This document shows positions 5,573 through 44,860 of a stretch of DNA of 47,726 nt, piece by piece. Origin of the DNA: Sphingobacteriaceae bacterium (GTDB lineage: Bacteria; Bacteroidota; Bacteroidia; Sphingobacteriales; Sphingobacteriaceae); NCBI GenBank assembly GCA_014380615.1, contig JACMJM010000046.1:1-47726 (forward strand), written 5' to 3'. A program made the translations under genes and the position numbers. The notes under the pieces are model-generated. The model saw nothing but the letters and a program-made list of their open reading frames with translations, had not been told where the DNA came from and made no database searches. The number at the start of each line of letters is the position of its first letter. The stretch's first letter is position 1.

Positions 5573-5593
5573 TAAGTATCCACTGATAAAATA

Positions 5594-5618
5594 GAAAAAG
5601 GCATGTGAGGCCTTTTTC
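5594..5618. terminator. Putative bidirectional intrinsic terminator between convergent genes
   Basis: gAAAAAGGC-atgtgag-GCCTTTTTc forms an 8-bp stem (aaaaaggc 5595-5602 pairing with gccttttt 5610-5617) with a 7-nt loop 5603-5609. The A-tract stem arm on one side and T-tract arm on the other let it read as a terminator on both strands. It sits between the stop of the + gene at 5572 and the stop of the - gene at 5622. Confidence 0.4.
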
Positions 5619-5621
5619 TAT

Positions 5622-12584: not shown

Positions 12585-12659
12585 TTCCCTCCCCAAGTTG
12601 GCACAAGAGCTAATTAGATTTGACAACTTTCTAAAAGTTGTCAAACCTCCGATCAACTA

Positions 12660-26294: not shown

Positions 26295-26921
26295 CTACTC
26301 TTCTGATTCGTTTGCCAGTTCCTTAAGGTTTGTTTCAAGAGCCGAAATTTTCTTAAAGTACTTCTCTCTGTAATACAGGTGGTTGAAGAGAAATGTGAGA
26401 GCTGTTACGCCCGCCGACAGAAACATTAAATTATCTTTCCCTAAATCTAAAGGCCCTAGAATCATCTTTAGAATTATAAAGAATGTAACGGGAAACAAAA
26501 AGAGATAAATTAAATTCATCCGCACATAAAACCTTCTGAACCGGAGGGTTGCTTTCGCTAAAGTATCTTTGAGGGCATGCGTAGTGTCGAAATCAAATAT
26601 CGCGGCCTGGTACCTAAATACCCTGATCGTGATAACGGCATATAGTGCTAAAAACGCGATTTCAATTAAATTATATCCCGGCGGATTAAATCGGGCGGGT
26701 AAAATAATATGCAATAAAATATTTACCGCCAATACACCAAGCAAAATCCCGCAGGAAACATCGCCCATTTTCTTCCAATACAAGTTCTTTGCCTGTAATT
26801 CATTTACCGTGCTTATAGTTTTCATAATTATTTCATTTAGTTTTTCTGCTGTTTGGGCCCGAAATTCAAATTCGGGCCCTTTACCGTCCTGCCAGTACCT
26901 TTTAAATTCGTCTAGTTCCAT
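26295..26921 (-). CDS. Polytopic membrane protein downstream of an ECF sigma; possible anti-sigma factor
   Basis: The 208-aa product lies 3 nt after the ECF sigma stop. It has a cytoplasmic N-terminus followed by about four hydrophobic helices. No conserved anti-sigma motif is recognised, so the call rests on position and topology. Confidence 0.4.
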   Translation of the reverse strand: MELDEFKRYWQDGKGPEFEFRAQTAEKLNEIIMKTISTVNELQAKNLYWKKMGDVSCGILLGVLAVNILLHIILPARFNPPGYNLIEIAFLALYAVITIRVFRYQAAIFDFDTTHALKDTLAKATLRFRRFYVRMNLIYLFLFPVTFFIILKMILGPLDLGKDNLMFLSAGVTALTFLFNHLYYREKYFKKISALETNLKELANESEE

Positions 26922-26924
26922 TTT

Positions 26925-27404
26925 TTACTTCTTTATAAGTATGCGCAGCTTAGTTTTTATTTTATTTAATTTAAACCCAATGTTAGATTCAGAAATCCCC
27001 AGTATTTCCGACATCTCTTTGTAACTGCAATCGTCAAGGTAAAGCATGGTTAACGCCCGTTCCACTTCAGAGAGTTTTTTAATAGCCTCATACATCTTAG
27101 TCAGTCTCTCTTCCTCGGGGCTTTCTACAAAGGCGGCGAAATTGCAGGTTCCATCACTTAATTCTTCAAATTTCTCCCGCCTGCTCTCCTTTCTAATCCG
27201 GGTTATAGCTGTATTTAGCGCAACTCGATACATCCAGGTAGATATTTTTGAATCGCCCTTGAATCCGGGATACGCTTTCCATAGCTGGAGAATAATATCC
27301 TGAAAAAGGTCCTCTATATCTTCTTTACCCCGGCAATAGAGATTGCATACCTTAAAAATTAAGCCCTCATTTTCTGAAATTATCTTTACAAATTGCTCTT
27401 TCAA
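26925..27404 (-). CDS. ECF-type RNA polymerase sigma-70 factor
   Basis: Region 2 (EDIEDLFQDIILQLWKAYPGFKGDSKISTWMYRVALNTAITRIRK) and region 4 (LSEVERALTMLYLDDCSYKEMSEILGISESNIGFKLNKIKTKL) are present. The product is 159 aa. Confidence 0.8.
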   Translation of the reverse strand: MKEQFVKIISENEGLIFKVCNLYCRGKEDIEDLFQDIILQLWKAYPGFKGDSKISTWMYRVALNTAITRIRKESRREKFEELSDGTCNFAAFVESPEEERLTKMYEAIKKLSEVERALTMLYLDDCSYKEMSEILGISESNIGFKLNKIKTKLRILIKK

Positions 27405-27564
27405 GATTTAGTTTTACCAATTAGTCGGCATTGTGAATAAAAACTTAGAGTTTTGAGAATATTTTTTTTTAACAATATGTGGGATAGATACGGGCCATTA
27501 ATTATTCTAATTACTTGAGCATCTTGATCGAATATAATAAAATGGCCTCAATTATACCTGAATC

Positions 27565-28281
27565 ATGAAATACTCTACGCATTATTTACTCTGTATTTTA
27601 CTTGTGTGCTGTCCGTTCTACGGCTTTCGCCCAGACCGGAAGCCCACACTTTTCATTATCGGAAACTCTCATGCCAGGAACGGTTCATTGGCTAACGGAG
27701 GCTTCGGCCAATGGGGATGGGGAAGCTTTATCCATAATCTCTTAGATACCACCAAAATATCAATACAAAACAGGGCGATGGGCGGAAGCAGTTCCACGAG
27801 TTATATCCAGACTGGCTTATGGGACAAAGTGCTGGCCGTTTTAAAACCAGGTGATTTTGTATTGATACAATTTGATAAATCCGAAAAGTATATTCAAGAT
27901 AGCAAATCCAAGGGGGCCACTCCGTTTATCTGTTCGCCCGGTGTTCGAAACGTTTGGATAAATAATAAAATAAACCGAAGGAATACCCGAAACGTCGAAG
28001 CGATGAAGGAGCAATATAAACTAAGCAAGGTTCCTTTTATCGACCTCTACACCCCCCTTTGCGATCATTACGATAAAATGGGACAAGATTATGTTTCGAG
28101 TATTTATTTCGGTATAGATTCCGTTCATACTATCGAGGGGGGTGCTAAAATGTCGGCCAGCCTGATTGCAGGAGGATTGAGAAATTTAAAAAAGAATCCG
28201 CTAAAAAAGTATCTCCTGAGGAAACCCCGGGACATGAAAAACTGGAAATACGCACCTAGTCCGGACCCTCGAAAGCTCTAA
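27565..28281 (+). CDS. SGNH hydrolase, rhamnogalacturonan acetylesterase-like (CE12-like), secreted
   Basis: TLFIIGNSHARNGS...GGFGQWGWGSF...GDFVLIQF aligns with the RGAE N-terminus ([25 protein letters not shown]...GDYVIVEFGHND). The block V DxxH is DSVHTIEGG. Block I reads GNS rather than GDS. Confidence 0.6.
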   Translation: MKYSTHYLLCILLVCCPFYGFRPDRKPTLFIIGNSHARNGSLANGGFGQWGWGSFIHNLLDTTKISIQNRAMGGSSSTSYIQTGLWDKVLAVLKPGDFVLIQFDKSEKYIQDSKSKGATPFICSPGVRNVWINNKINRRNTRNVEAMKEQYKLSKVPFIDLYTPLCDHYDKMGQDYVSSIYFGIDSVHTIEGGAKMSASLIAGGLRNLKKNPLKKYLLRKPRDMKNWKYAPSPDPRKL

Positions 28282-28507
28282 TAACGGCTTTATTTCGCTG
28301 CCGTTTGATACGCTGACAGTCCGGTTACTTCCTGAAAAATTATTTACAGATCATCCCAGATTACCTGAAAACAAAATTTAACCTGAGGCCAATTTTGAGC
28401 TGCCTGTGCCGATCCGTCGACTGCCATAATTAACACCTAAAATATCAACTGATGTTCGAATATAGGGTTCTCACTCTTTAAATCCATTTTCACTTCTTTA
28501 TTGCCAG

Positions 28508-28582
28508 GAAAATCGCTTTTAAATAGAATTTCAAGCTATGCAATGAACGTCAGACTGCGTTTAGACACTGTCTGACGTTCAT
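28508..28582. repeat. Repeated intergenic palindromic element, copy A (3' of the cgs-like gene)
   Basis: ggaaaatcgcttttaaa ... atgaacgtcagac (28543-28555) / gtctgacgttcat (28570-28582) forms a 13-bp perfect stem with a 14-nt loop. It shares GAAA(A)TCGCTTTTAAA and the GAACGTCAGAC...CTGTCTGACGTT core with copy B at 38197-38299. Confidence 0.6.
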
Positions 28583-28629
28583 TTCGAGATATTAAGCCAT
28601 AACATAACAGCATCGTATATCTCATTCCA

Positions 28630-31600
28630 TTACCCTGCTTCGCAATACATCTCCACATCATGTGTTAGTCCGTCGTCAACCAATTGCAGTACATTTCCTT
28701 CTGTTTTAATACTTCCGGTTTTACTATATGAGCTTCCCTCGTTTAACTGAAAGACCGTGATTTTATAAACCGTGCGCCCATACTTGTAAATCACGTTAAC
28801 CGATGGCCAGCTGAGAGGGAAACAAGGTTTGAAAATTAAATTATTATGCCGCAGTTCAATACCGAGTAAAGAGCCGGTTATAAACTGGTACATCCACCCT
28901 GCCGAACCGGTGTACCAGGTCCAACCGCCACGGCCTTTATGCGATTCATTGGCATATACATCCGCAGCCATTACATAGGGCTCTACTTTATACACCTGAA
29001 CGGCATCGGCGTCTAAAGCATGGTTTAGAGGCTGAACAAGGTTAAATAACTCGTAAACTTTTTTGCGCTGGCCCAAAGCCGCGAAAGCCATAAGCGTCCA
29101 GATAGCGGCATGAGAATATTGTCCGCCGTTTTCACGAACGCCGGGAACGTAGCCACGGATATAACCCGGATTAGGCCCTTTCGAATCAAAAGGAGGATCG
29201 AGCAACTGGATTAGCTTTAAATCGGTTTTTACCAGATACTTGTTAAGAGAGGCCATACCCTGCGCCCTGCGCCCTTCATTAGCCGCACCAGATAATACAG
29301 ACCAGCTTTGAGCGATAGCATCAATGCGGCACTCCACGTTTTGGGCAGACCCTAAAGGACTTCCGTCGTCAAAATAGGCACGCCGGTACCATTCGCCGTC
29401 CCATCCCGATTCTTCAATATTGGTTTGCAATTTCAGAGCCTCTGCCTGGCACCTTTCGGCGAAAATAGTATCCCCGAAACCTTCTGCCACGGAAGTAAAC
29501 TTCGACAGTACATCATACAGAAAGAAGGCAAGCCATACACTTTCACCCTTGCCCCTCAGGCCAACCTGATCCATCCCGTCGTTCCAATCGCCGGCACCGA
29601 TAAATGGCAGGCCATGCGTACCGAATCGTAAACTAACCATAATAGCACGTTTACAATGTTCATATAAAGAAGCCTGCATGCCGGCACTTACCGGTAAATC
29701 ATATAATGTTTCTTCGTCTTCAAAAAGAGTACGGCTTTCTAAAAATCCTACCGAGGAATTTAATATTGCGGTATCGCCGGTCGCCGAAACATACCTCGAT
29801 ACTACAAAAGGCAGCCAAAGCATGTCGTCCGAACAGCGGGTTCGCACTCCCCTGCCCTCAGGCGGGTGCCACCAGTGCTGAACGTCGCCTTCGGCAAACT
29901 GGCGCGAGGCACTTAATAAAATTTGCTCGCGGGCCATATCAGGCCGGTTGTGCAACAACGCAAGAACATCCTGCAGCTGATCTCTGAAACCAAAAGCTCC
30001 GCCCGATTGATAGAATCCGCTTCGGGCAAACATACGGCAGGCCATTGTTTGATATGTCAACCAGCCGTTGGCCAGTACATTCAAGGCCATATCGGGTGTA
30101 TTTACCTGTACTTTTCCTAAAGTATCATTCCAGTATTCCTTTACTTCCCGCAAGGCTTCGATAACCATTTCGCGGACAGTAAACTTCCTTATCAGGGCAC
30201 TGGCAGCCTGGGTATTTTCTCCATTGCCCAGCATGAAAATAATCTCTTTTTCGGCACCGTCAAGCAAATCAAATTTTACCTGTAAAGCCGCACAGGGATC
30301 TACGGCAGCACCGGTTTTTCCGGAAAGCCTTTTTCGGTACATGGCCTGAGGCTCGTGTAATGTGCGATTACGGCCGATAAATTCTGTGCGATCTGCGGTA
30401 TAACTAAAATTCACTCCGCCGTCTACCTTGAAGAAAGTAACGCGTTCGGCGAAAGCAGAGTTATAACGGTTTCTCAATAACACCGCTCCGGTATTGGGGT
30501 CTTGTTCGGAAACGATGTGCATATGGGTTTTCGACCGAACATCACCCAAAACAGCCTCTATAAACCCAGTGGCAGAAAATTTACCTTCGCGGCCCGATTG
30601 GTTTTTAATTGTGAGAACGATAAATTTAACCGGTAGCTCTTTATGCGCAAACACGCACATTTCTGTGGCAATACCATTTTCAATATGCTCGAAAGTAGAA
30701 TAACCAAAGCCATGAGTAATGATATAAGGAGATGAGCCGTTTGCGGGAAATGCCGAAGGCGACCAAAAATCCCCTGTTTCCTCATCTCGTAAATAGAAGG
30801 CTTCGCCGCCGGTGTCGCTTACTGGATCGTTGCTCCATGGCGTAATGCGGTATTCGTGGGCATTTACCGCCCAGGTATAGGCCGATCCGCTCTCCGAAAT
30901 TACCGTACCGAAGCCCGGGTTAGCAATAACGTTTACCCATGGTGCCGGAGTAGTTTGACTGCCATTTACAGTAATCTTGTATTCCTTACCATCGGGTGTA
31001 AACCCGCCGGTACCATTAAAGAACAACAGTCCGTCCGGCAGGGCCAGGGTTTGTGATACGGGCTGGTTGATAATTATTTTAGGTTCGATAAGAGCAGGAA
31101 GCACCCTGTCTGATTGTCGGGAGTTTACCTGCTCGGATAAGGTACCGCGATTATCATAGATAATTACCCTTGCTACACTCTCAAAAAGAATGCGGTCTTC
31201 TGAAGACAGCTGGTCGACCGATTTTACATAAATAGTACCCGGGGTGTTATGAGTAAGGTTTGTATTTACTTCGGCGGTTATTAAACCGAGAATCTGATCC
31301 TGCAATACCTGACGATAGGTTCCGTGGTCTTCATTCCAGATTACCAGGTCGACAGCGAGGCCTTTTAAACGCCAATACGCATGGGCCTGCACCATCTGCC
31401 TCACCAGTTCCATACTCTCCGCATCGTAAATATGAAGTAGTACGATGGGTAAATCACCGGATACAGAATGGCTCCAAAGCCAGGACTGCCCGCGGAAATT
31501 ATTTTGAATAACCGAAGCCTCTGCCCGTAAATTAGCGTTGCCGTAAATTACAGACGAAGCCAGCCTGCCGTAAAGCTGGGCATCGCCTTCGGTAGCGTTA

Positions 31601-34600
31601 ATCTGTCGTAACAAAACCTGGCTATGGGTCCAGGAAAGTTCAAACGCACGGTTCTTTAGGTGCCTGTCGTGGTATTTGTACATCAGGGCGATACAAGCAT
31701 CTTTCGTTTCGCTGATACCGTAAATAAGGTCGAAAGTGATAGTTTGATTGGGCCTGATAGTTACCCTGTAACGGATAGATAGAATAGGATCCAAAACCGA
31801 ACCCTGCTTGCCCGAAAGCGAACTGGTATCCATTGCCTGAGGATGGGCAAGCGTTTTACCCCGACCAGTAAACTGCATCCTGTCTGTTTCGAATGAGATG
31901 GCTTCGGCAGCGGCACCCCTCACATCCATCATGTGGAACATCCAGGGCGGAGTTTCGCCTTCAGATCTGGGGCGGCGCGTACAGAGCACCGCATTCTGCT
32001 CTTCCATTATTTCTGTCTGCACAAAGAGATTACTGAAAGCGGGATGCGCTTCATCCGACGGCTGGCTCGCCATAACTATTTCGGCATAGCTGGTTACCTC
32101 CAACACCTTTACTACTTGGCCTTTATTAGTAATCCTGATACGCCTCATCTCGGTATCATCTTCGGGAGATACCACAATCTCGGTGCGAGTATCTATTCCG
32201 AAATCATTTCTGCGAAACTCTACGTGCCCCTGAGAAAACGTCGCCTCATAATTTTTTGCCGGATGAAGGGTCGGCTGGTAAGTATTTGACCAGAAAACAC
32301 CGCTTTTAACATCTTTTATATAGCAAAATATTCCGCGGTCGTCTTTAGTAGTATCTTCTCTCCAGCGGGTAACCGCGATATTTCGCCAGCGGCTATACCC
32401 CCCGCCCGAATTACTTATCATTACCTGGTAATTACCATTGCTTAACAGCTGAATTTCGGGTACTGGCGTATTAGGTGTGCGGATATTACGCACCTGTATA
32501 TTGCTTTCGGTGGTATGGGTTTCGATAATATCAGCCGTATGGGCATAAAACAGAGTGGTTCGTGGAATGCGCTCCTGTAAAAGCAATAAGGTAGCCTGAA
32601 ACCTTAGCTCGGCCGCAAAGCGTTGCTGCATGGGTTTATTAAGCAGCACATAAGCCAGTGAAAGAAAACCCATTCCCTGGTGATGCACCATATAAGAACG
32701 TACAATACTATTGGTTTTTCCCCGGGGTAAACGGCTAGCGGTGTAATCTATGGCTTCAAAAAAGCCATGTTCGCCTTCAAAACCCTCTCTTGATAAAAGC
32801 TGCAAATTGGCGCATGCCTTAACAGGAGAAACCATTAAGGCCAGCATAGTTGCGTAGGGTGCAATAACCAGGTCTTCTTCAAGTCCGCGCTTTAAGCCTA
32901 GGCCCGGTACACCAAAAGCCCGGTACTGATAATTCAAATTCGCGTCTACGGTATTATACCCCGATTCTGAGATACCCCAGGGCACTCCCCTTTGGGTAGC
33001 GTATTCTATCTGGCGCTTAACAGTGGCTTTACTTGTTTGGTGAAGCAGCGTATTTTCATACGATGGCATTACCAGCTGCGGCATAAGGTATTCGAACATT
33101 GAACCGCTCCAGGATAAAAGAATGGGATCTCCGCCTGAGTTGGTAAGTAAGCGGCCTAAAGCGAACCAGCTTTCCTGAGGAAGCTTACCCTGGGCTATGG
33201 CCACAAAAATACCCAGCCGGGCCTCGGAAGCAAGCAGATCATAGAAACTGTCATCTTTTCGCTGATCGTCAACGTTGTACCCGATACGCAGCAGGTTGGT
33301 AGATTTATCATAAAGAAAATCGTACTCAATTTCACTAAGCTCTTCGCATTGCCCTGAAAGTTTTTCGAGGAGCAGGATTTGGCTTTCAGCATATCTGCCG
33401 CCGGTTTCTAATAAAGTCGCGAATTTGGTTAACCATTCTATATTCGTTTCTCCAGCTTTCTTAAAACCTTCAATTACAACATCAGATTGAACACCTTTAA
33501 TATCTGACAAAGAGGGGATTACATCTAAATAAGTTAAATTATCGGGCAAAGGCATCTCTAACCACGGCACCAATTTAAGCAGATCATTGAGGATATAATT
33601 TACCTGGTCAGACAGACGAACCGCCCACTTATACAGTTCGGATTCGGCATCTTCTTGTTCAACAAGCTTCCCGCTGAGTAGGGCAAGATTTGAAAGATCT
33701 TTTTTTACGGAACTAAGGGTTGCATTTTCAGACAGCAAGGCGGTATCCAATAAGGCCTGGATCTCCTCAATCAAACCGTTTTCATGAGGATTACTTAGGC
33801 CCTGTATTATTTCGGTAGTAGTTATAAACCCGTGGAATACCTGCTTGCTGAAAATGGGCTGCCAGGGAACAGCCAAAAGCCCCTGACGCAGGGTGAGTAA
33901 ATGCCCGGCAAGATTTCCGCTATCAACCGTAGAAACATAACGCGGATGAAGAGGGGTTAAACTTAAGGTATCATACCAATTGTAAAAATGCCCTTTATAA
34001 CGTTCCAGCGCAAGCATCGACCGAAGTGTATTATCGCATCGAGAGGCAAGTTGTGAAGCTGTGATATAACCAAAATCATACGCTCCAAGATTGGCAAGCA
34101 AGGCCAGACCCATATTGGTTGGCGAAGTACGGTGGGCGATAACAGCTGCGGGGTGTTCCTGAAAATTATCAGGCGGAAGCCAGTTTTCCTGTGCGCTTAC
34201 AAAATTCTCAAAAAACGACCATGTTTTGCGGGCCGACTGATGAAGGAAGGTTAACTGTTCTGGCGAGAAATCGGGACTTTCCTCCTTCTCGGGCTTACTA
34301 AGCAGCCAGGCGATTGCTGGAGCAAAAAACCAGAGAATAAGTATTGGAGAAGCAACTATAACCGCATTAGAATTAATTAAAGAAAGAATTACCAGGCCAG
34401 CTACTGAAAGGAAGGGGGTAATCCACATGGTTTGATACTCAAACCAGACCGTATAATTTAATGGGGCAGATATTGTAGCCGAGGGTGTCCATTGCAAAAG
34501 TTTTTTACCTGAAACAAACATGCGCCAGTTGGTACGAACAATTGCGTCGAGATTTTTAAAAGCTTCGTAAGGCAGTACGGCCAAACCAAAAACAAAACGG

Positions 34601-37290
34601 ATAATAAGATCTCGTAATGTAATACCTACTTCGACAAGATGGGCGTTTAGAGTTAGTTCAATAGGTTTATTTAATAGCTGCCAGCATGCGGCGATTATAA
34701 CGGGTAACAATACAATAATAGTTACCATTAGTGTCCAAAACCAGGGAAGCGGCAGCACCGACCAGCCAAGCATCAGAAGCAGAATTAGTGAAACCGGAAG
34801 AATACTTCTTCGCAGGTTATCCAGAATTTTCCAGCGCGACAAAGCAGATATCGGATTTGACCTGAGACCGCCCTCCCCTCCGATTATAAATGGCAACATC
34901 CAGGCTGCTATCTGCCAGTCGCCCCTTATCCAGCGATGATGGCGCCTGATATCCGCGCTGTATTGCGCCGGACCGTCTTCGTATAATAAAACATCGCTTA
35001 TTAAACCCGACCTGGTATAGCAACCCTCGAGTAAATCGTGACTCAAAATGCGATTTTCAGGAAAAACCCCGTGAACGGCACGCTCAAAAACGTCTACATC
35101 ATAAATACCTTTACCTATAAACGATCCCTCTTCAAAAACATCCTGATACACGTCTGAGGATACGCGGGTATAAGGGTCAATTCCGGTAACGTTGCCCTGC
35201 ATACGCAGATATAAGGAAGTAGCCGTTTTGGGAATACTGGACGCAACACGAGGCTGAAGAATACCATAGCCTTCGGTTACCCGCTTTTTAGAAACATTAA
35301 ATACCGCCTGATTAAGCGGATGCGCCATGGTAGCTATAAATTTCCAGGCGGCATCCCTCGGCAACTGCGTATCTGAGTCGAGCGTTATAACGTATTTTAC
35401 ATTGCTTAAAAGAATAGTATTTCCAACCACGGCCGAAAATTCATTCGTACCACGGCCTCTTAAAAAGGCGTTCAGAGCTGATAGCTTTCCTCTTTTACGT
35501 TCATATCCCATCCATACTTTTTCGGATGGATTAAACGTACGAGGGCGGTGAAAAAGGAAAAAGGTATCGCCTTCGGAGGGGTTATATTTTTGATTGAGTG
35601 CCTCTATGCTCTTTGTGGCGGCCGCTACCAGGTCATCGTCGCCGGGCATGGTTTCGCTTTTGGCGTCTGTAAAATCTGTAAGGAGGGCAAAATGCAAGTT
35701 CTCTTCTTTATTTGCCAGAAAACGGATCTCCAGGCCTTCTATCAGTTCTTCAACATAGCTCAGGCTTGAAAGCATAGTCGGAATTACTACCATGCTTCGG
35801 TATTCGGTAGGAATTCCTTCCGAAAAATCCATCCGCGGTAAAAGGAAAGGCCTTACCCATATAGTAGAAAACCAGTTCACTAAAGAAACCGCCAGTTGCG
35901 AAGATCCGATAAAAGCGAGAATAGCCACTACAGATAACATCGCCCAGCCCTGGGCACCATTTATATAGGCTAATGCCCACATTGCTACGGCTCCTGATAC
36001 GGCTAGAATAACTATAGCAAAAAAATAAAGGAATACGGGAAACTCCCGGAGCGTACGGTTGAGCTTTTTCTTGATGGTGTAGCGCATTTTAGACGCTCGT
36101 TCGGCTTCCTTAAGGCCCTTATCAACCAAATAATAACCCAAATGCTTTTTCCGCCCACCCATTTCGGCAGATTCATGGGGCTTTTCGGTAAGGTTGAGTA
36201 CTATTTGCGCAACTTCTGTTTCTGAGAATAAAGAATTTTTAGAAATAGACTCTACAACATGCCGATACCTGTCGCGTGTGGCAAAGTCCATCAGCGGATA
36301 AACGCCTGTTGTATCCTGTCGTAAAACCTGTTCAACGCTGCTAAGTGTTTCTACAAATTCGCGCCAGTCGTTAGCCCCGATAAAACGAAGGGTGCCGATA
36401 CTATTACGCACCGAAACTTGGTCTGAAGCTTGTTTTTGTGTTTCCTGGCGGATAAGATCGCTGCTGCTTACACCCAATGCGGATAGCTGTTGTTCCATCC
36501 AACTTAAAGGAAGTGCCAACGCAGGCCCTTTTCCCTGTAGCGCACGGGTAAAACCAGCAACAAATGCTGAATTCAGTATAGGTTTAGACCTTGCCATATC
36601 CGCAATACTGAGAATTAGATTCCCGGGCTGTTCCTTAACGGTTGTAAGCATATTCCCCGCCCAGTAGTCGGCCATGTTCTGGTCAATCATATCTAATGCG
36701 ATCAAACCCGCTACTCTCCTAAGATTTTCGATTATGGCAAGGCGCACCATAATGGGGATAGCCCATAATTCGCCCAGGGTAAGAATAGTATGTGTTTGAT
36801 AAGCGGCGATAAAACTACTCAGGCTGTTTACATCAACGCGGCCATCGCTGTGCGAGATAAGCTCGAGTACAATATCATAAACGCGTGGTATACCGGTTCC
36901 CAGATAAGGCAAGCCTTCGCTATACCCCTTAGGTAAATGCTTCCTGGCTATAACAACCTGCTCTTCAATAAGATAAAAATTATCGAGCAGCCATTCGGCA
37001 CCTGGCGTAATATCACTACCCTGCCTGATTCCCTCTACAAGCATATTTCGCACGTCGAGTAATGATTTCTCATTGGCGTCGAGCCTTTTCAGCAACTGAT
37101 CTGAGGATATCCTTTTTTGAAGTTTATGTGAGCGAGCTACCGATTTTGCGTGGAGTTCCATCTGGCCCGAACTAAAGAGTTCTGAATGGAAGCGCAGATC
37201 ATCATCACTGGTTCTCATAGTATCGTCTTTTTGAAAGGTACTGCGAAGGCCTGATAACATGTCGAAAACGGTGGTGGTGATGTCTTTCAT
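28630..37290 (-). CDS. Cyclic beta-1,2-glucan synthase (Cgs/NdvB/ChvB-type; N-terminal GT84 glycosyltransferase with 6 TM helices, central duplicated domain, C-terminal GH94-like phosphorylase domain)
   Basis: The 2886-aa size is characteristic. The N-terminal region carries GELWAIPIMVRLAIIENLRR. TM helices flank a GT-A domain (VVIPTMLSS..., ITLDSDTQLPRDAAW as the DxD region). A duplicated beta-sandwich/(alpha/alpha)6 region is present (RNIAVTRWREDTTKDDRGIFCYIKD... and GFGTVISESGSAYTWAVNAHEYRITPW...). The C-terminal GH94-type motif is GAGDWNDGMDQVG. Confidence 0.85.
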   Translation of the reverse strand: MKDITTTVFDMLSGLRSTFQKDDTMRTSDDDLRFHSELFSSGQMELHAKSVARSHKLQKRISSDQLLKRLDANEKSLLDVRNMLVEGIRQGSDITPGAEWLLDNFYLIEEQVVIARKHLPKGYSEGLPYLGTGIPRVYDIVLELISHSDGRVDVNSLSSFIAAYQTHTILTLGELWAIPIMVRLAIIENLRRVAGLIALDMIDQNMADYWAGNMLTTVKEQPGNLILSIADMARSKPILNSAFVAGFTRALQGKGPALALPLSWMEQQLSALGVSSSDLIRQETQKQASDQVSVRNSIGTLRFIGANDWREFVETLSSVEQVLRQDTTGVYPLMDFATRDRYRHVVESISKNSLFSETEVAQIVLNLTEKPHESAEMGGRKKHLGYYLVDKGLKEAERASKMRYTIKKKLNRTLREFPVFLYFFAIVILAVSGAVAMWALAYINGAQGWAMLSVVAILAFIGSSQLAVSLVNWFSTIWVRPFLLPRMDFSEGIPTEYRSMVVIPTMLSSLSYVEELIEGLEIRFLANKEENLHFALLTDFTDAKSETMPGDDDLVAAATKSIEALNQKYNPSEGDTFFLFHRPRTFNPSEKVWMGYERKRGKLSALNAFLRGRGTNEFSAVVGNTILLSNVKYVITLDSDTQLPRDAAWKFIATMAHPLNQAVFNVSKKRVTEGYGILQPRVASSIPKTATSLYLRMQGNVTGIDPYTRVSSDVYQDVFEEGSFIGKGIYDVDVFERAVHGVFPENRILSHDLLEGCYTRSGLISDVLLYEDGPAQYSADIRRHHRWIRGDWQIAAWMLPFIIGGEGGLRSNPISALSRWKILDNLRRSILPVSLILLLMLGWSVLPLPWFWTLMVTIIVLLPVIIAACWQLLNKPIELTLNAHLVEVGITLRDLIIRFVFGLAVLPYEAFKNLDAIVRTNWRMFVSGKKLLQWTPSATISAPLNYTVWFEYQTMWITPFLSVAGLVILSLINSNAVIVASPILILWFFAPAIAWLLSKPEKEESPDFSPEQLTFLHQSARKTWSFFENFVSAQENWLPPDNFQEHPAAVIAHRTSPTNMGLALLANLGAYDFGYITASQLASRCDNTLRSMLALERYKGHFYNWYDTLSLTPLHPRYVSTVDSGNLAGHLLTLRQGLLAVPWQPIFSKQVFHGFITTTEIIQGLSNPHENGLIEEIQALLDTALLSENATLSSVKKDLSNLALLSGKLVEQEDAESELYKWAVRLSDQVNYILNDLLKLVPWLEMPLPDNLTYLDVIPSLSDIKGVQSDVVIEGFKKAGETNIEWLTKFATLLETGGRYAESQILLLEKLSGQCEELSEIEYDFLYDKSTNLLRIGYNVDDQRKDDSFYDLLASEARLGIFVAIAQGKLPQESWFALGRLLTNSGGDPILLSWSGSMFEYLMPQLVMPSYENTLLHQTSKATVKRQIEYATQRGVPWGISESGYNTVDANLNYQYRAFGVPGLGLKRGLEEDLVIAPYATMLALMVSPVKACANLQLLSREGFEGEHGFFEAIDYTASRLPRGKTNSIVRSYMVHHQGMGFLSLAYVLLNKPMQQRFAAELRFQATLLLLQERIPRTTLFYAHTADIIETHTTESNIQVRNIRTPNTPVPEIQLLSNGNYQVMISNSGGGYSRWRNIAVTRWREDTTKDDRGIFCYIKDVKSGVFWSNTYQPTLHPAKNYEATFSQGHVEFRRNDFGIDTRTEIVVSPEDDTEMRRIRITNKGQVVKVLEVTSYAEIVMASQPSDEAHPAFSNLFVQTEIMEEQNAVLCTRRPRSEGETPPWMFHMMDVRGAAAEAISFETDRMQFTGRGKTLAHPQAMDTSSLSGKQGSVLDPILSIRYRVTIRPNQTITFDLIYGISETKDACIALMYKYHDRHLKNRAFELSWTHSQVLLRQINATEGDAQLYGRLASSVIYGNANLRAEASVIQNNFRGQSWLWSHSVSGDLPIVLLHIYDAESMELVRQMVQAHAYWRLKGLAVDLVIWNEDHGTYRQVLQDQILGLITAEVNTNLTHNTPGTIYVKSVDQLSSEDRILFESVARVIIYDNRGTLSEQVNSRQSDRVLPALIEPKIIINQPVSQTLALPDGLLFFNGTGGFTPDGKEYKITVNGSQTTPAPWVNVIANPGFGTVISESGSAYTWAVNAHEYRITPWSNDPVSDTGGEAFYLRDEETGDFWSPSAFPANGSSPYIITHGFGYSTFEHIENGIATEMCVFAHKELPVKFIVLTIKNQSGREGKFSATGFIEAVLGDVRSKTHMHIVSEQDPNTGAVLLRNRYNSAFAERVTFFKVDGGVNFSYTADRTEFIGRNRTLHEPQAMYRKRLSGKTGAAVDPCAALQVKFDLLDGAEKEIIFMLGNGENTQAASALIRKFTVREMVIEALREVKEYWNDTLGKVQVNTPDMALNVLANGWLTYQTMACRMFARSGFYQSGGAFGFRDQLQDVLALLHNRPDMAREQILLSASRQFAEGDVQHWWHPPEGRGVRTRCSDDMLWLPFVVSRYVSATGDTAILNSSVGFLESRTLFEDEETLYDLPVSAGMQASLYEHCKRAIMVSLRFGTHGLPFIGAGDWNDGMDQVGLRGKGESVWLAFFLYDVLSKFTSVAEGFGDTIFAERCQAEALKLQTNIEESGWDGEWYRRAYFDDGSPLGSAQNVECRIDAIAQSWSVLSGAANEGRRAQGMASLNKYLVKTDLKLIQLLDPPFDSKGPNPGYIRGYVPGVRENGGQYSHAAIWTLMAFAALGQRKKVYELFNLVQPLNHALDADAVQVYKVEPYVMAADVYANESHKGRGGWTWYTGSAGWMYQFITGSLLGIELRHNNLIFKPCFPLSWPSVNVIYKYGRTVYKITVFQLNEGSSYSKTGSIKTEGNVLQLVDDGLTHDVEMYCEAG

Positions 37291-37625
37291 AAAAACAAAC
37301 TGATATTTATCACGGGATTATGATAAAATATCTGGAATTATTAATGCCTGAATACAGATAATGTTTTAGAGGATAGTGTTAACAAACCCGTTTGGCCAGA
37401 AAAACCAGCCTAATTTACAATGGCAAAGTAATAGCTTAAAGATAGGATATTAATAGGCATTTACAGTAATACAAGTATTTTACCCGGTTTTTTTTTCGGA
37501 TTATAGGAAACGTCATCATAGCCAACCTGTTAGCGAAGTTTATAAATTCATAATTAAACCGAGGGGGGGGAGGTACGGTGCTATAATTAGAATTCGAAAG
37601 TTCTTAAATAAAATATATTCAGCAC

Positions 37626-38021
37626 TTAAACTTTTTCATAAACCTTCGATTCGGGAAGGCTTACAAGTTCAACATCCTGCTCTTCGTTTTGATTTACCCG
37701 CCTCGAATTTAAAAACAGGTAATAATATGCCATAACCAACACACCCGACACAAAGAATACGGTTGCGTAAGGCCTTGTTGTATCATCGTAGAAAAATTCG
37801 CCGATCATCCAAACGCTATTGGCGCATACCCAGCAACAAACCGCTATGTTATGAAATAGCTCTGTAATAATTTTCCTGGTACGCCAGGTGATAAAAAACG
37901 CCACCAGAATGGTAGGAAGGATCATAAAAACACCCAAAATCTGGAAGTCCATCACCCAGCAACTATCTTTTAGCAACCACAAAAAAATATGAACATTTTC
38001 TACTCTACGAACCGATTTCAT
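37626..38021 (-). CDS. Small 4-TM membrane protein, hypothetical
   Basis: The 131-aa product has about four hydrophobic helices (LGVFMILPTILVAFFITW; IAVCCWVCANSVWMIGEFF; TVFFVSGVLVMAYYYLFL). No family is recognised. Confidence 0.45.
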   Translation of the reverse strand: MKSVRRVENVHIFLWLLKDSCWVMDFQILGVFMILPTILVAFFITWRTRKIITELFHNIAVCCWVCANSVWMIGEFFYDDTTRPYATVFFVSGVLVMAYYYLFLNSRRVNQNEEQDVELVSLPESKVYEKV

Positions 38022-38196
38022 TTAATACGCTATAACTATTGGGAACATTCTACGAATACTCAATACAAGAATTTCTAAATATTGAAGGTTTGAATATACA
38101 AAAAATCCTAATACACGACAGGAAATTTAAGAGTTTACCAAAACCACTTTAAATAATATTTTGCTTACACCCAACATATCCTTCCGGTATATCAGA

Positions 38197-38299
38197 GAAA
38201 TCGCTTTTAAACTTTTATAGAACGTCAGACAGCGTTGGAAACAACTGTCTGACGTTGCTTTTTCTTTAAACAGTTCGCACGGTTTTCAAAAGCGATTTC
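38197..38299. repeat. Repeated intergenic palindromic element, copy B: nested inverted repeats with a plus-strand terminator-like hairpin (3' of the flotillin gene)
   Basis: Outer IR gaaatcgctttt (38197-38208) / aaaagcgatttc (38288-38299), 12 bp perfect. Inner hairpin aacgtcagacag (38221-38232) / ctgtctgacgtt (38245-38256), 12 bp perfect, 12-nt loop, followed by gctttttcttt. Confidence 0.6.
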
Positions 38300-38326
38300 C
38301 CTGTCGGGTATATGGGTGAAATTAAT

Positions 38327-40261
38327 TTAAACCTTAGCCACCGGATCGGCCCGCAATTCTTTAAGATCCTCTTTTTTCCCAGGATTCATCATCTCCATTA
38401 ACTTCAAGCCAAGCATCCCTTCTATGGCGGAACCATTACCACCATTTGCGCCAATCAGCACATCCGGAATTAGCTTTATATTTCCTTTTGAAAGCTCCTC
38501 AGTAATTTTGTAACGGGTAAAGTTTTCGCCACCTAAAGCCTTAACCGCTAATTGATAAGCTTCGGCAGTAGATTTGCCTACAGCAAGTATTTTACCTGCG
38601 TCGGCTGTACCTGTTAATGATATTTGTTCGGCCTCGGCTGATGCACGAAGTTTAATCGCTTCAGACTCTGCTACCGCTCTGGCTTTTGTAGCCTCGGCTT
38701 CGGCATGTGCCCGCATTTTGGTGGCTTCCGCCTCGGCCCCTACAGCTAGTTTAACACCTGCGGCATCTCCTTCAGATTTTTTAACGGTTGCGCTAGCTGT
38801 TTTTTCGGCTATTTCAACACTCTGTTGTGCCTTAACAATATCCTTTTGCATATCCGCAATAGCGGTTTCTTTTTCCATACCCTGCCTTTGTTCCTGAGCT
38901 TGTTTTTGAGTGTCGTAAGTTACTCGCTGCTCCTCCGCGATTTTTCGGTCGGTTAAAGTTTTCATAAGCGATTCGGGCGGAACAATATCCCCTATCAGCG
39001 TATCTACGGCATTTACATTATATTCATCCAGCACCTTTCTGATGTGTTCACGGGCCGACTCTTGTCTTTCTTTACGGGTGCTTAAGAAAGCGATTACATC
39101 ACTGTCCTGTGCAGAATTTCGGAAATAGTTACCAATGGTGGGTTCGAGAACCTGCGAAACAAGGTTAACCATGTTCCCGAAACGGGCAATAACTTTCGGA
39201 GCCTCGGTGGTAGGTACGTGAATAATCTGCGCCACATCGAGGTTGAACGGAAAACCATCTTTTGATCGAACAGTTATAGTAGACAAGTTCTTATCCAGGT
39301 TATGAGCTTCACTTCTTGCGGCTGCCCAGTTCAATACAAGATTGGTGGTAGGAACTAATTCTACTTTCATAGTGTATTTGTTGATGGGATATTTACCCGG
39401 GCCGAGTGGCTGAAGCCAAACACCTTTTGAACCTTTCTCAACAATATTTCCATGCTTAAAATCATCTCCTGTAAGATCCGGGCCGTCATGTCCGATGTAC
39501 GAAATCACCACCCCGACAAACCCTATAGGGATTTCTGTCATTGGAGTTTCTTCCAATTGAATGGCCCATGGATTAAGATTGTACGAACCCGCTAAAATTA
39601 CCTGAGGCTGCAATCCGCGGTTACCCCCGTTTAAAATGAATTTATCAAAGTCCTGAAAGTTATTATGGCCTTCTACCAGCTTACCTGCAATCTGTCCGGC
39701 TTCAATGGGTAAACCGTCTAAAGTGGTAACAATACCTACCATACTTTCCTGAATTCTGATCATATCGGTAACCGACACTTGAAACAGCATGGTATTGATA
39801 CGGTATGAGCCGGATGTTATATAGGATGTTTGCCGTCCTCTCTGTCCGCCGTTTTCCAGAAATTTTACCGCATCCTGAAAGTTATCAGAGTCGACATTTT
39901 TTCCGAGTATATTGCCGGTTGGTATTTCTGAACCGTCTTTCGCAAGTACTAACCCGATTTTACCTTCCGGTATTACTGTAAAAAGCTCCATGGTTACATC
40001 AAACTGCCAGAACCACATCCAGAAATAAATTCCGGGAGCGAGTGTTCTGCCCTGAAAACCTGCCTCACCCAGTGTGGCAATAATGCGCCCGTCGGGCAAT
40101 TCTTTATTTTTTCCGAACAGAACAAATTTTTTGGTTACCAAACCTATTTTATCCTCTGGCACTATGACCATTCCGAATAAAAATCTTAGAACGAATTTGT
40201 ACAACACGATAACAACGATGAGTGCAAGCACCCACCAATAATGTAACATTGGATTTTCCAT
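38327..40261 (-). CDS. Flotillin-like SPFH/band-7 protein (FloT/YqiK family)
   Basis: An N-terminal TM helix (YWWVLALIVVIVLYKFVL) precedes an SPFH domain. A long C-terminal coiled coil has the flotillin-typical Ala/Glu repeat (AVGAEAEATKMRAHAEAEATKARAVAESEAIKLRASAEAEQ). The 644-aa length also fits. Confidence 0.8.
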   Translation of the reverse strand: MENPMLHYWWVLALIVVIVLYKFVLRFLFGMVIVPEDKIGLVTKKFVLFGKNKELPDGRIIATLGEAGFQGRTLAPGIYFWMWFWQFDVTMELFTVIPEGKIGLVLAKDGSEIPTGNILGKNVDSDNFQDAVKFLENGGQRGRQTSYITSGSYRINTMLFQVSVTDMIRIQESMVGIVTTLDGLPIEAGQIAGKLVEGHNNFQDFDKFILNGGNRGLQPQVILAGSYNLNPWAIQLEETPMTEIPIGFVGVVISYIGHDGPDLTGDDFKHGNIVEKGSKGVWLQPLGPGKYPINKYTMKVELVPTTNLVLNWAAARSEAHNLDKNLSTITVRSKDGFPFNLDVAQIIHVPTTEAPKVIARFGNMVNLVSQVLEPTIGNYFRNSAQDSDVIAFLSTRKERQESAREHIRKVLDEYNVNAVDTLIGDIVPPESLMKTLTDRKIAEEQRVTYDTQKQAQEQRQGMEKETAIADMQKDIVKAQQSVEIAEKTASATVKKSEGDAAGVKLAVGAEAEATKMRAHAEAEATKARAVAESEAIKLRASAEAEQISLTGTADAGKILAVGKSTAEAYQLAVKALGGENFTRYKITEELSKGNIKLIPDVLIGANGGNGSAIEGMLGLKLMEMMNPGKKEDLKELRADPVAKV

Positions 40262-40461
40262 GATTTGTGATTTTAAGTTTATTTTTATAGGGTTTAGAAA
40301 GCTTTTTATCAGCTATTAAGAAAGCTGGTGTCGTGTTGTTGTACTATATCAGCCTGGGCGGAGTTGAAGCCCAAACGAATTACCCTTCGACAGAGCCTGT
40401 ACTGAGCTTTACGAAGTACTTATGGCCACAATCAACACGACTTTTTATCGTTAACCCGCCC

Positions 40462-40848
40462 CTAAGGCGAATCCTGAAATCCTGAATAAACGATTACATC
40501 GCCAACTTGTAATTGCGTGACCTCGTAAGTATTTGTCATGGGATGAAAGTGGCTAAAAAAGCCTGGTTTTAAATAGGAAACGACCACTTCTTTATTAACC
40601 AGATTCTTCGTCAAAGTGTCTGAATTTAATCCCATACTATCCGCTTGAGCGATAGAATACACTCCTCGGGTGTTATAAAAAGACAGCACTAAATTATTTA
40701 ATCCACCCTGCTTCACACCTGTCGCGATTGCTGTAAAAACGATGCTGTTTTGCCTGGTAACCGGCAAGGGCTTAATAATGAAGAATATTACGACTATAAA
40801 TATTAAGCCGGTAGTTATGGGCCAAAAGTATTTTAAAAATTTATACAT
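40462..40848 (-). CDS. Small membrane-anchored protein upstream of the flotillin gene; possible short NfeD/YuaF-like partner
   Basis: The 128-aa product has an N-terminal TM (ITTGLIFIVVIFFIIKPL) followed by a beta-rich soluble domain (VVVSYLKPGFF...VGDVIVYSGF). It sits immediately 5' of the flotillin gene in the same orientation, as in yuaF-floT type operons. Homology is not established. Confidence 0.4.
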   Translation of the reverse strand: MYKFLKYFWPITTGLIFIVVIFFIIKPLPVTRQNSIVFTAIATGVKQGGLNNLVLSFYNTRGVYSIAQADSMGLNSDTLTKNLVNKEVVVSYLKPGFFSHFHPMTNTYEVTQLQVGDVIVYSGFQDSP

Positions 40849-40892
40849 GTCAATCGTATCTAAATTTTAAGAGCCTGCTAAAATTATAAGTA

Positions 40893-42830
40893 CTATCCTA
40901 TCCTCTTCAACTGTATTCTTTTGGTATGGTCGATAATTAAGGGAACCTTTTCTACCGCTACAGAGCTTAAATCGAGGCCAAAGTTCTTTTCATCAGACAG
41001 GCTTAACTTTTTAAGCATTTGGTGATAAATTATAATTGATCGCTCGATAAATCCCAGACTGGCCGAATTAGTTATTACCTTTTCGATAACCACAAACCTA
41101 AAGTCTCCGGCGATATTAAATTCTCTTAGCGATGGGTAGTTACTTAGAATCTCTACCTCCGATTCCTTAACCAAATCTTCTACAACCGTTCGAAAGAGGA
41201 TATTGATTCTTTGATCTGCCTTAAATCCCAATTTAAAATCGACCCTGATAAGCTGCTTAGGGATAAATGAAGTTACTTTATACTCCATGGTATAAGGTTC
41301 GTCGGTAACATCAACATGCAAAAGCCAGTAAACATCTGCCCTTTTTGGGTTTTTTTGAATTATTGAGTAGATAATGGATTGCTCGATTTCGCTTTTAAAG
41401 TTAGCACTGGTAAGGTATACCAAATGCGAGGCATATTTAGGAACCGTGGTATCTTTGCTGAGTTTACTTATTACGGGGAAGTATTTATCAATCTCCACGA
41501 ACTTCATATAGCGGTTTCTGATTTGGCGGCCGTTAGACCATGCCCACATAACCGAAAATAAAATTGCGCCCAGAATAACGGTAAACCAGCCACCATGCAA
41601 TATTCTGGGGAGATTACCGGCCAGGAAGGTTAACTCGATTATGCCGTAAATGATGAGAAACATAACAACAAGATATAGGGGATAGTGCTTTCGGCGGAGG
41701 AAAACCGCTACCAGAATAGTTGTCATTAACATGGTGATAGTAATAGACAAACCGTAGGCATGTTCCATACTATCAGAGTCGCGAAAAATAAACAACACCA
41801 CCATACAGCCAACCCACAAAATCCAGTTCATTGAAGGGACATAGATTTGGCCTTTTTGCAGCGAGGGAAAGTTAATTTTTACTTTGGGCCAAAGGTTTAA
41901 CCTTACCGCTTCCGCAATCAAAGTAAACGAACCCGATATCAAGGCCTGGCTTGCGATGATAGCCGCAAGAGTGGCTACCGCGATTCCGTATATTAAGAAC
42001 CAATGAGGCATTATGCTGTAAAATGGAACTCTGCCTTCCAAATAGTGGCCCTGTTGCTGCCAAAGCCAAACTCCCTGTCCAAAATAATTAAGCAACAGGC
42101 AGGTTTTAACATAAATCCAGCTGATTCTGATATTGGCCCGTCCGCAATGCCCTAAGTCAGAATATAAGGCCTCCGCTCCAGTTGTACAAAGAAATACCCC
42201 GCCGATAATAAGAAATGCCTGAGGGTGAGTTGTGAGGGTATGATAGGCGTAATAAGGGTTAATACTTTTCAGGATTCCGGGAAACTGCGTTAAGTAAGAG
42301 AGCCCTAAAACCGCAATCATTGTAAACCAAATCCACATGATAGGCCCGAATGCTTTTCCAATAATAGAGGTTCCAAACTGTTGAACAATGAAGATAACCG
42401 AGAGAATTATGATTACGATAGGTATGGTAGGGATATTCGGATACCGAAGGGCAAGTCCTTCTATAGCGGCCGAAACTGTAAACGGAGGTGTAATTATACC
42501 ATCGGCCAAAAGAGCCGCACCACCAACAGCCGCCGGAATTATCAGCCATTTACCCTTATTTTTAACCAGCGAGAAAAGTGAAAATATTCCGCCTTCACCC
42601 TTATTGTCGGCCTGAAGTGTTATGATAACGTACTTTATGGTTGTTTGTAGGGTAAGCGTCCAAAACACGCACGATAATCCGCCCAGTATAAGTTCGGGTG
42701 TTATCAGCCTGGGGCCGATTATAGATTTGAATACATATAGAGGAGAAGTGCCGATATCTCCGTAAATAATACCTAAGCTAATTAATAGGCCGGCGGCTGA
42801 TAATTTATGTACATGTTTATGAGTACCCAT
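40893..42830 (-). CDS. kup: KUP/HAK/KT family potassium uptake transporter
   Basis: GLLISLGIIYGDIGTSPLYVFKSI is the hallmark GD(I/V)GTSPLY motif. There are about 12 TM helices plus a ~200-aa cytoplasmic C-terminal domain. The length is 645 aa. Confidence 0.9.
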   Translation of the reverse strand: MGTHKHVHKLSAAGLLISLGIIYGDIGTSPLYVFKSIIGPRLITPELILGGLSCVFWTLTLQTTIKYVIITLQADNKGEGGIFSLFSLVKNKGKWLIIPAAVGGAALLADGIITPPFTVSAAIEGLALRYPNIPTIPIVIIILSVIFIVQQFGTSIIGKAFGPIMWIWFTMIAVLGLSYLTQFPGILKSINPYYAYHTLTTHPQAFLIIGGVFLCTTGAEALYSDLGHCGRANIRISWIYVKTCLLLNYFGQGVWLWQQQGHYLEGRVPFYSIMPHWFLIYGIAVATLAAIIASQALISGSFTLIAEAVRLNLWPKVKINFPSLQKGQIYVPSMNWILWVGCMVVLFIFRDSDSMEHAYGLSITITMLMTTILVAVFLRRKHYPLYLVVMFLIIYGIIELTFLAGNLPRILHGGWFTVILGAILFSVMWAWSNGRQIRNRYMKFVEIDKYFPVISKLSKDTTVPKYASHLVYLTSANFKSEIEQSIIYSIIQKNPKRADVYWLLHVDVTDEPYTMEYKVTSFIPKQLIRVDFKLGFKADQRINILFRTVVEDLVKESEVEILSNYPSLREFNIAGDFRFVVIEKVITNSASLGFIERSIIIYHQMLKKLSLSDEKNFGLDLSSVAVEKVPLIIDHTKRIQLKRIG

Positions 42831-44770: not shown

Positions 44771-44798
44771 AGTGCCCTTAATTTGCATTAAGGGCACT
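44771..44798 (-). terminator. Putative intrinsic terminator after the sigma54-dependent response regulator gene
   Basis: agtgcccttaat-ttgc-attaagggcact is a 12-bp perfect stem with a 4-nt loop. On the minus strand it is followed by ttctgttttcgg (U-rich). It lies 63-90 nt downstream of the stop at 44861. Confidence 0.5.
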
Positions 44799-44860
44799 GT
44801 TACTAAAAATAAGGGATACGTTTTTATCAAAATGAAAAATTAATTTTTCATTTTGGGGTT

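Follow-up and report, generated by a model that had tools for sequence, protein, structure and literature searches.

What are the two similar palindromes that lie shortly past the stop codons of two minus-strand genes in this sphingobacterial genome, and how did they come to be there? A reading of the sequence alone had taken them, here called copy A and copy B, for members of one repeat family, either REP/MITE-like or associated with terminators. The DNA that we analysed, referred to below as the window, is one whole contig of a MAG and measures 47,726 bp. Our analysis leads us to regard A and B, with good though not complete confidence, as a truncated and a complete copy of a MITE with ISAs1-type ends.

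Setting of the two repeats and their shared sequence

The order of features in this part of the window is a 238-aa ORF, copy A, a cyclic-beta-1,2-glucan-synthase-like (cgs-like) gene, a 131-aa gene, copy B and a flotillin gene. The genes and the parts of the two repeats are as follows.

27565-28281 (+): ORF of 238 aa, with a weak, N-terminal, sub-threshold GDSL-lipase match
28505-28583 (+): copy A, 79 bp, consisting of a left end and a hairpin only, as delimited by alignment to B
28505-28523 (+): left terminal repeat of A, CAGGAAAATCGCTTTTAAA, 17/19 identical to each arm of B
28508-28523: motif GAAAATCGCTTTTAAA in A
28542-28583 (+): hairpin of A, a 14-bp perfect stem AATGAACGTCAGAC / GTCTGACGTTCATT with 14 nt between the arms
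28630-37290 (-): cgs-like gene, 2,886 aa, with its stop codon at 28630-28632
37626-38021 (-): membrane-protein gene, 131 aa, with its start at 38021
38183-38192 (no strand): left copy of the target-site duplication, TCCGGTATAT, 10 bp, adjoining the left terminal repeat of B
38193-38303 (+): copy B, complete non-coding element, 111 bp, between the flotillin stop and the start of the 131-aa gene
38193-38211 (+): left terminal inverted repeat of B, CAGAGAAATCGCTTTTAAA, 17/19 complementary to 38285-38303
38197-38211: motif GAAATCGCTTTTAAA in B
38221-38256 (+): internal hairpin of B, a 12-bp perfect stem AACGTCAGACAG / CTGTCTGACGTT with 12 nt between the arms
38257-38267 (+): T-rich tract of B, GCTTTTTCTTT, after the hairpin on the plus strand
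38285-38303 (-): right terminal inverted repeat of B, read from the outside in as CAGGGAAATCGCTTTTGAA
ending at 38299: inverted partner TTCAAAAGCGATTTC of the first motif in B
38304-38313 (no strand): right copy of the target-site duplication, TCGGGTATAT
38327-40261 (-): flotillin gene, with its stop codon at 38327-38329

The 238-aa ORF and the cgs-like gene are convergent, and copy A lies between them. Non-coding DNA of 223 nt separates the ORF from A (region 27565-28504), and the ORF itself may be a decaying gene. At the other end of this stretch, the flotillin protein has its best relatives among Daejeonella and Pedobacter proteins, with 88-91% identity. A run of eight G residues (37563-37570), located in the 335 nt that separate the 131-aa gene from the cgs-like start, could be a slippage-prone tract or a weakness of the assembly. 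On the other side of the 131-aa gene, the ~45 nt immediately 5' of its start (38022-38066) are partly conserved in the locus of its closest homolog (L111, 442-486), where the motif CGTAGAAT..TCCCAA..TTATA recurs. The 131-aa gene therefore probably has its own promoter or 5' UTR close to its start and does not obtain it from copy B.

All sequences described by the sequence-only reading were found at their places, and A and B indeed share one orientation, each 3' of the stop of a minus-strand gene. Their common end motif was there too, only longer than noted: it comprises 19 nt, CAGRRAAATCGCTTTTRAA, and begins with the CAG at 28505 in A and at 38193 in B. The window holds it three times, at 28505 (plus strand), 38193 (plus strand) and 38285-38303 (minus strand), compared with 0.24 expected when three mismatches are allowed. 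The hairpin common to both copies has the stem arms GAACGTCAGAC / GTCTGACGTT, the next base being C in A and G in B. The loops that separate the shared 11-nt arms measure 14 nt in A and 16 nt in B, which corrects the spacing of 12-14 nt given earlier.

Shared 14-mers taken alone are at chance level in the window (12 pairs vs 9.4 in Markov simulations). A shared 14-mer followed within 45 nt by a co-linear shared 11-mer was found once in the real sequence and in 0 of 300 simulations, so the likeness of A and B is no coincidence, as had been proposed. The repeat is real and non-random. Its conservation is block-wise: ends and stem arms agree almost perfectly, and the linker from end motif to hairpin, 22 nt long in A but 9 nt long in B, cannot be aligned. 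In the alignment, similarity between the copies stops exactly at the 3' end of the hairpin.

Complete and truncated copies of a putative ISAs1-type MITE

The structure of copy B is that of a transposed unit. Its terminal arms of 19 nt, alike at 17 of 19 positions, are the sole pair reaching at least 17/19 in the window for element sizes of 78-338 nt, where 0.1 was expected. Both ends of B are abutted by the 10-mers TCCGGTATAT and TCGGGTATAT, which match at 9 of 10 positions with a single mismatch; a pair of 10-mers that agree at 9/10 or better at the geometry of B, 111 nt apart, occurs at 1 of 47,595 window positions. Neither this flanking direct repeat nor the extension of B to 38303 had been part of the sequence-only reading. 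We also considered a 7-bp repeat with a 3-nt offset at the ends of B (p ~0.008) and discarded it, since the 10-bp reading removes the offset. No frame is open across B, and all six frames of A and B are stopped, leaving only chance ORFs of 24-41 aa. For the whole element as RNA, the predicted folding energies are -46 kcal/mol (z -8.4) for the minus strand and -38 kcal/mol for the plus strand; for its internal hairpin in minus-strand RNA, the value is -19.9 kcal/mol (z -6.9). The flotillin stop lies 24 nt from the end of B.

The term MITE, taken broadly, denotes non-autonomous elements that an IS transposase mobilizes (PMC3281130). Copy B is shorter than ~500 bp and non-coding, and it has terminal inverted repeats and an abutting target-site duplication. 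Since a short non-coding segment with such repeats and such a duplication is the footprint of DDE-type transposition, we read B as a MITE. Of the options left open by the earlier reading, the MITE-like one is favored by the 19-bp terminal inverted repeats of B, by its abutting 10-bp duplication and by ends of the ISAs1 type.

Elements of the ISAs1 family have IRs of 14-22 bp that start with CAGGG, and a 10-bp DR (PMC11946415); the range of DR lengths that we applied is 8-10 bp, with 10 as the typical value. ISArsp11 carries a 19-bp IR, CAGGGCTGATGCAAAGTCG, which also starts with CAGGG, and a 10-bp DR (PMC6305408). In our window, the right end of B begins with CAGGG, the left end of B with CAGAG and the left end of A with CAGGA, the last two deviating by one mismatch each. 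Because IR length, first bases and duplication length all agree, B fits ISAs1, an assignment made from the ends and the length of the duplication only. Elements of the IS4 type likewise produce duplications of 9-12 bp.

Individual members of the family allowed a closer comparison. A copy of ISOan1 on a plasmid of Octadecabacter arcticus, 1,248 bp long, has the IRs CAAGGCAATCGC / CAGGGGAATCGC (in a longer reading, CAAGGCAATCGCATGA / CAGGGGAATCGCATGA) and a 10-bp duplication, TCGGTATCCC / GCGGTATCCC, that matches at 9/10. The right end of B agrees with the right IR of this copy in 11 of the 12 terminal nt and in 14/19 overall; its agreement with ISAs1-type elements of K. grimontii and E. coli is 9/12. 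With CAGGG discounted, a rough estimate puts the chance of such likeness at ~0.01-0.02 over the ends compared. The H-repeat of E. coli K-12 (yhhI), 1,291 bp, is bounded by CAGGGAAAGATCA / CAGGGCAAGATTA. Other candidates for comparison were set aside: the ends of an ISAs1 fragment on a Tenacibaculum plasmid were too degraded, and the copies of ISKpn31 and ISAs12 were truncated or lacked a clean duplication. As a separate observation, the duplications of the ISOan1 copy (T/GCGGTATCCC; L114, 263-1530, pOA238_118) and of B (TCCGGTATAT / TCGGGTATAT) contain CGGTAT or GGGTAT, which may reflect a shared target preference of the ISAs1 type or a coincidence.

Members of the ISAs1 family such as ISOan1, ISEc1/H-repeat and ISArsp11 thus resemble B in their CAGGG-type IRs of ~19 bp and their 10-bp duplications, but they are ~1.2-1.4 kb long with one ORF, whereas B has 111 bp and no transposase gene. 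Among classical short repeats, Correia elements of Neisseria, ERIC/IRU of enterobacteria and RUP of Streptococcus pneumoniae are, like B, short and non-coding, with terminal inverted repeats and a target duplication; they too are intergenic, lie near gene ends and would form a stem-loop of the whole element if transcribed. B has no sequence relationship to any of them, and differs by an additional conserved internal hairpin. Copy numbers differ as well, with two copies visible in the 47.7-kb window, one of them incomplete, against tens to hundreds for classical MITE families.

Copy A is another matter. The earlier reading had described a nested palindrome in both copies, which holds for B and fails for A: the best candidate for a right arm of A, at 28619-28637 over the cgs stop codon, matches at only 12/19, a score that 18% of random stretches attain, and no direct repeat flanks the copy. 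With neither a significant right arm nor a duplication, A is best interpreted as a copy that has been truncated and may belong to a diverged subfamily. The hairpin of A is predicted to be very stable as well (-24.7 kcal/mol in minus-strand RNA, z -7.7). The cgs-like stop lies 47 nt from this hairpin, that is, from the break of A. As the cgs-like protein does not stand out from its homologs in the length of its C-terminus, A apparently left the coding sequence unaltered.

The history that we propose runs as follows. A DDE transposase of the ISAs1 family, whose gene would lie elsewhere in the genome or have since been lost, would have bound the 19-bp ends; the element would have inserted 14 nt 3' of the flotillin stop, and staggered cuts 10 bp apart would have given rise to the duplication. 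The right half of A would have been lost by a later deletion or rearrangement beside the cgs-like gene, so that A and B would now be passengers in 3' intergenic DNA. Two predictions go with this scheme: an allele with the site of B empty would join TCCGGTATAT directly to GGGTGAAATT, and the parent ISAs1-family element would be bounded by IRs like CAGGGAAATCGCTTTT. If transcribed with the upstream gene, A and B would form very stable 3' stem-loops that could pause transcription or protect the mRNA, as a side effect and not as the repeat's raison d'etre. An influence of A and B on termination or mRNA stability is thus plausible as a by-product.

We reconstructed the empty site by deleting B and one copy of the duplication (38314-38326 joined to 38150-38192). 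The result is predicted to form a hairpin, CACCCAUAUACC...GGAUAUGUUGGGUG, 14 nt past the flotillin stop (-13.1 kcal/mol, z -1.9). Since the reconstructed site folds into this modest structure, B possibly landed in, and may have split, the original 3' stem-loop of the flotillin gene. Natural counterparts of the empty site were looked for at the loci of flotillin orthologs (L080-L083), of the closest cgs homolog (L093) and of homologs of the 131-aa gene (L094, L111, L112); as these loci are not syntenic with the window, they yielded no pre-insertion allele.

Searches for further copies and for the parent IS gave the following results. The hairpin pattern AACGTCAGAC-N8-30-GTCTGACGTT matched 79 loci in GTDB representative genomes, a set that excludes the source genome; none of these carries the 19-nt end motif, and the majority, spread over many phyla, are unrelated terminators whose hairpins have A-runs and T-runs at their sides. 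The pattern AAATCGCTTTT-N8-38-AACGTCAGAC matched nine times in JGI metagenomes, and as the second hairpin arm is absent in all nine, we take them for chance matches. In viral contigs (IMG/VR), the two-arm pattern and the arm-plus-hairpin pattern each had 0 matches, and a 16-nt version of the end motif had 14 chance matches with no inverted partner; two of the 14 (L099, L107) contain all 19 nt of the end motif, inside a 742-aa ORF. BLASTN of B against plasmids and phages returned chance fragments only (E 0.3-4). No transposase was present among the 8 ORFs scanned beside A and B (23490-28281 and 37626-42830), no cognate autonomous IS with the same ends as B was found in the collections searched, and a literature search for the stem sequence produced nothing relevant.

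Alternative readings of the palindromes

Could the palindromes instead be terminators or 3'-UTR stabilizer hairpins of the cgs-like and flotillin genes, derived from a duplicated terminator module? Both copies sit 24-47 nt past the stops of minus-strand genes and have very stable hairpins, and in a scan for perfect stems of at least 9 bp, A is the sole strong structure between its two convergent genes. Perfect hairpins at gene ends are, moreover, common in this window, which has eight with stems of at least 11 bp where ~0.4 would be expected. Besides those of A and B, these are the following, with stems of 12-18 bp.

2809-2842: perfect intergenic hairpin
5589-5623: perfect intergenic hairpin
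12619-12645: perfect intergenic hairpin
21557-21603: perfect intergenic hairpin
44771-44798: perfect intergenic hairpin
44828-44855: perfect intergenic hairpin

The eight are without exception intergenic, several being at gene ends, and the six are unrelated in sequence to A and B. Several of the six look like bidirectional terminators; those at 2809-2842 and 21557-21603 precede start codons and could function as operators or as structures of a 5' UTR.

Like A and B, intrinsic (Rho-independent) terminators have a G+C-containing hairpin soon after a stop codon, but they also have a U-tract on the sense strand. Neither A nor B has one after its hairpin on the minus strand, where the tails read GCAUAGCUUG... 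in A and CUAUAAAAGU... in B. At the two copies, a terminator scan flagged only a plus-strand site in B (38230-38257), antisense to both neighbors, and the terminator-associated option of the earlier reading finds no support on the sense strand. The hairpin of B together with GCTTTTTCTTT does resemble an intrinsic terminator directed from the left end into the element, again antisense to both neighboring genes, and it could be a relic of a read-through barrier of the parent IS.

Evidence from related genomes bears on the same question. Flotillin orthologs with 90-91% amino acid identity end in ordinary, unrelated terminators composed of an A-run, a hairpin and a T-run, with no element of this kind; nothing similar lies downstream of the closest cgs homolog; and homologs of the 131-aa gene have other neighbors. 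The element is therefore not an ancestral part of the neighboring genes. A terminator function would, furthermore, leave the 19-bp terminal repeats and the abutting 10-bp duplication unexplained, and we consider it unlikely as the basis of the repeat.

The MITE reading has a gap of its own, since a plain MITE model does not explain why A and B are conserved in blocks, with the stem kept and the linker not. This pattern hints that the hairpin sequence itself may be under constraint. One could imagine that an ISAs1-type MITE took up a hairpin module recognized by a Bacteroidota-wide factor, and that the cyclic-glucan-synthase gene arrived by horizontal transfer, with A at its junction. Chitinophagaceae carry both the AACGTCAGAC[AG] stem and the closest cgs relatives of the GC-rich gene that abuts A. 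We regard this combined scenario as a long shot.

The same stem invites a comparison with REP and REPIN palindromes spread by a REP-associated tyrosine transposase, of which A and B would be members related to hairpin arrays on AACGTCAGAC in Chitinophagaceae. A stem of 10-12 bp, AACGTCAGAC(AG), recurs in 10 fetched loci of Flavihumibacter stibioxidans, several of them tandem arrays in which the orientation of the motif alternates, as well as in Flavihumibacter sp. CACIAM 22H1 and in Chitinophagaceae MAGs, and between A and B it is likewise the stem sequence, not the linker, that is conserved. This likeness arises partly by construction, the shared stem being the search pattern with nothing beyond it in common, and none of the Flavihumibacter or Chitinophagaceae loci has the 19-nt end motif. 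As the sole shared part is the 10-nt stem used as the query, the connection to Flavihumibacter is a lead and not a case of homology.

In F. stibioxidans YS-17 the arrays are intergenic and built on AAACGTCAGAC(G) in alternating orientation (L036, 7138-7638; L032, 6123-6469; L008, 880-1060), examples being 7.1 copies of a 71-nt unit and 3.9 copies of an 88-nt unit. They resemble REP/BIME arrays.

REP, BIME and REPIN elements, which are present in high copy number, share with A and B the form of stable intergenic palindromes past gene ends. They are not expected to make target-site duplications or to carry terminal repeats of the IS type, whereas B has IS-type repeats and a 10-bp duplication, and neither arrays nor a RAYT gene are seen beside A and B. 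The REP option named in the earlier reading thus does not fit, being contradicted by the duplication and the IS-type terminal repeats of B, and we hold membership in such a family to be very improbable.

A further possibility concerns the DNA between the two copies. The cgs-like gene stands out from its surroundings: its GC content is 0.44-0.50, compared with 0.36-0.43 in the rest of the window, and its C-terminal 600 aa have their best homologs in Chitinophagaceae (Puia, Ginsengibacter, Sediminibacterium) at no more than 75%, while its neighbors have best matches of the Sphingobacteriaceae type. Composition and homology suggest that the gene was horizontally acquired. A and B might then be direct repeats bordering the acquired segment, either as att-like sites or as the borders of a MITE-bounded composite transposon, for they are in direct orientation and bracket 28505-38303, and the gene between them is GC-richer, with best homologs in Chitinophagaceae and not in Sphingobacteriaceae.

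Several observations speak against such an arrangement. Having complete ends and a duplication of its own, B must have been inserted by itself, as a unit of 111 bp. No duplication is common to the outer flanks of the two copies (TCTTTATTGC vs TCGGGTATAT). The 131-aa gene inside the interval has homologs of the Sphingobacteriaceae type, and no integrase or transposase is found among the ORFs scanned beside the copies. Matching orientation of two copies, finally, has a chance of 50%. Because B has ends and a duplication of its own and the outer flanks share none, we judge both the composite-transposon and the att-site version highly unlikely.

We give next to no weight to the idea that A and B act as cis-regulatory RNA or encode a small RNA, such as one transcribed from the plus strand and ending at the hairpin. 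The plus strand of B does offer a hairpin followed by a T-tract, and sequence blocks are conserved between the copies. Against this, Rfam had 0 matches at the gathering threshold over the whole window, yielding only generic hairpins of miRNA models with 12-19 bits where the thresholds are 40-100 bits; no promoter of the Bacteroidetes type (TTTG ... TAnnTTTG) occupies a consistent position near A or B; A has no T-tract; there is no downstream gene on the minus strand for A or on the plus strand for B; and the element is not conserved in relatives.

Integron attC sites were rejected; these follow a cassette gene as imperfect palindromes that have an inverse core RYYYAAC and a core GTTRRRY at their ends, and an integron integrase or further attC sites in an array lie close by. 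In our case, the candidate cores on the gene strand, GTTCTAT in B and GTTCATT in A, do not fit GTTRRRY, no integrase is among the 8 ORFs scanned around the copies, and the flanking genes are large or core genes.

Significance for annotation and genome dynamics

In conclusion, the truncated and the complete copy of what is probably a MITE with ISAs1-type ends add a real but ordinary finding, a mobile element of a well-known kind that opens no long-standing question. A and B are not a new regulatory or terminator system. For annotation, the appropriate labels for the palindromes are MITE (B) and MITE fragment (A), with ends of the ISAs1 type, and not terminator or new RNA element. To our knowledge, MITEs are poorly catalogued in Sphingobacteriia, and a search of the full genome for the family and for its parent IS can start from the 111-bp consensus. 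As a marker, the element could also help to trace recent genome dynamics near the cgs-like gene, which is apparently foreign.
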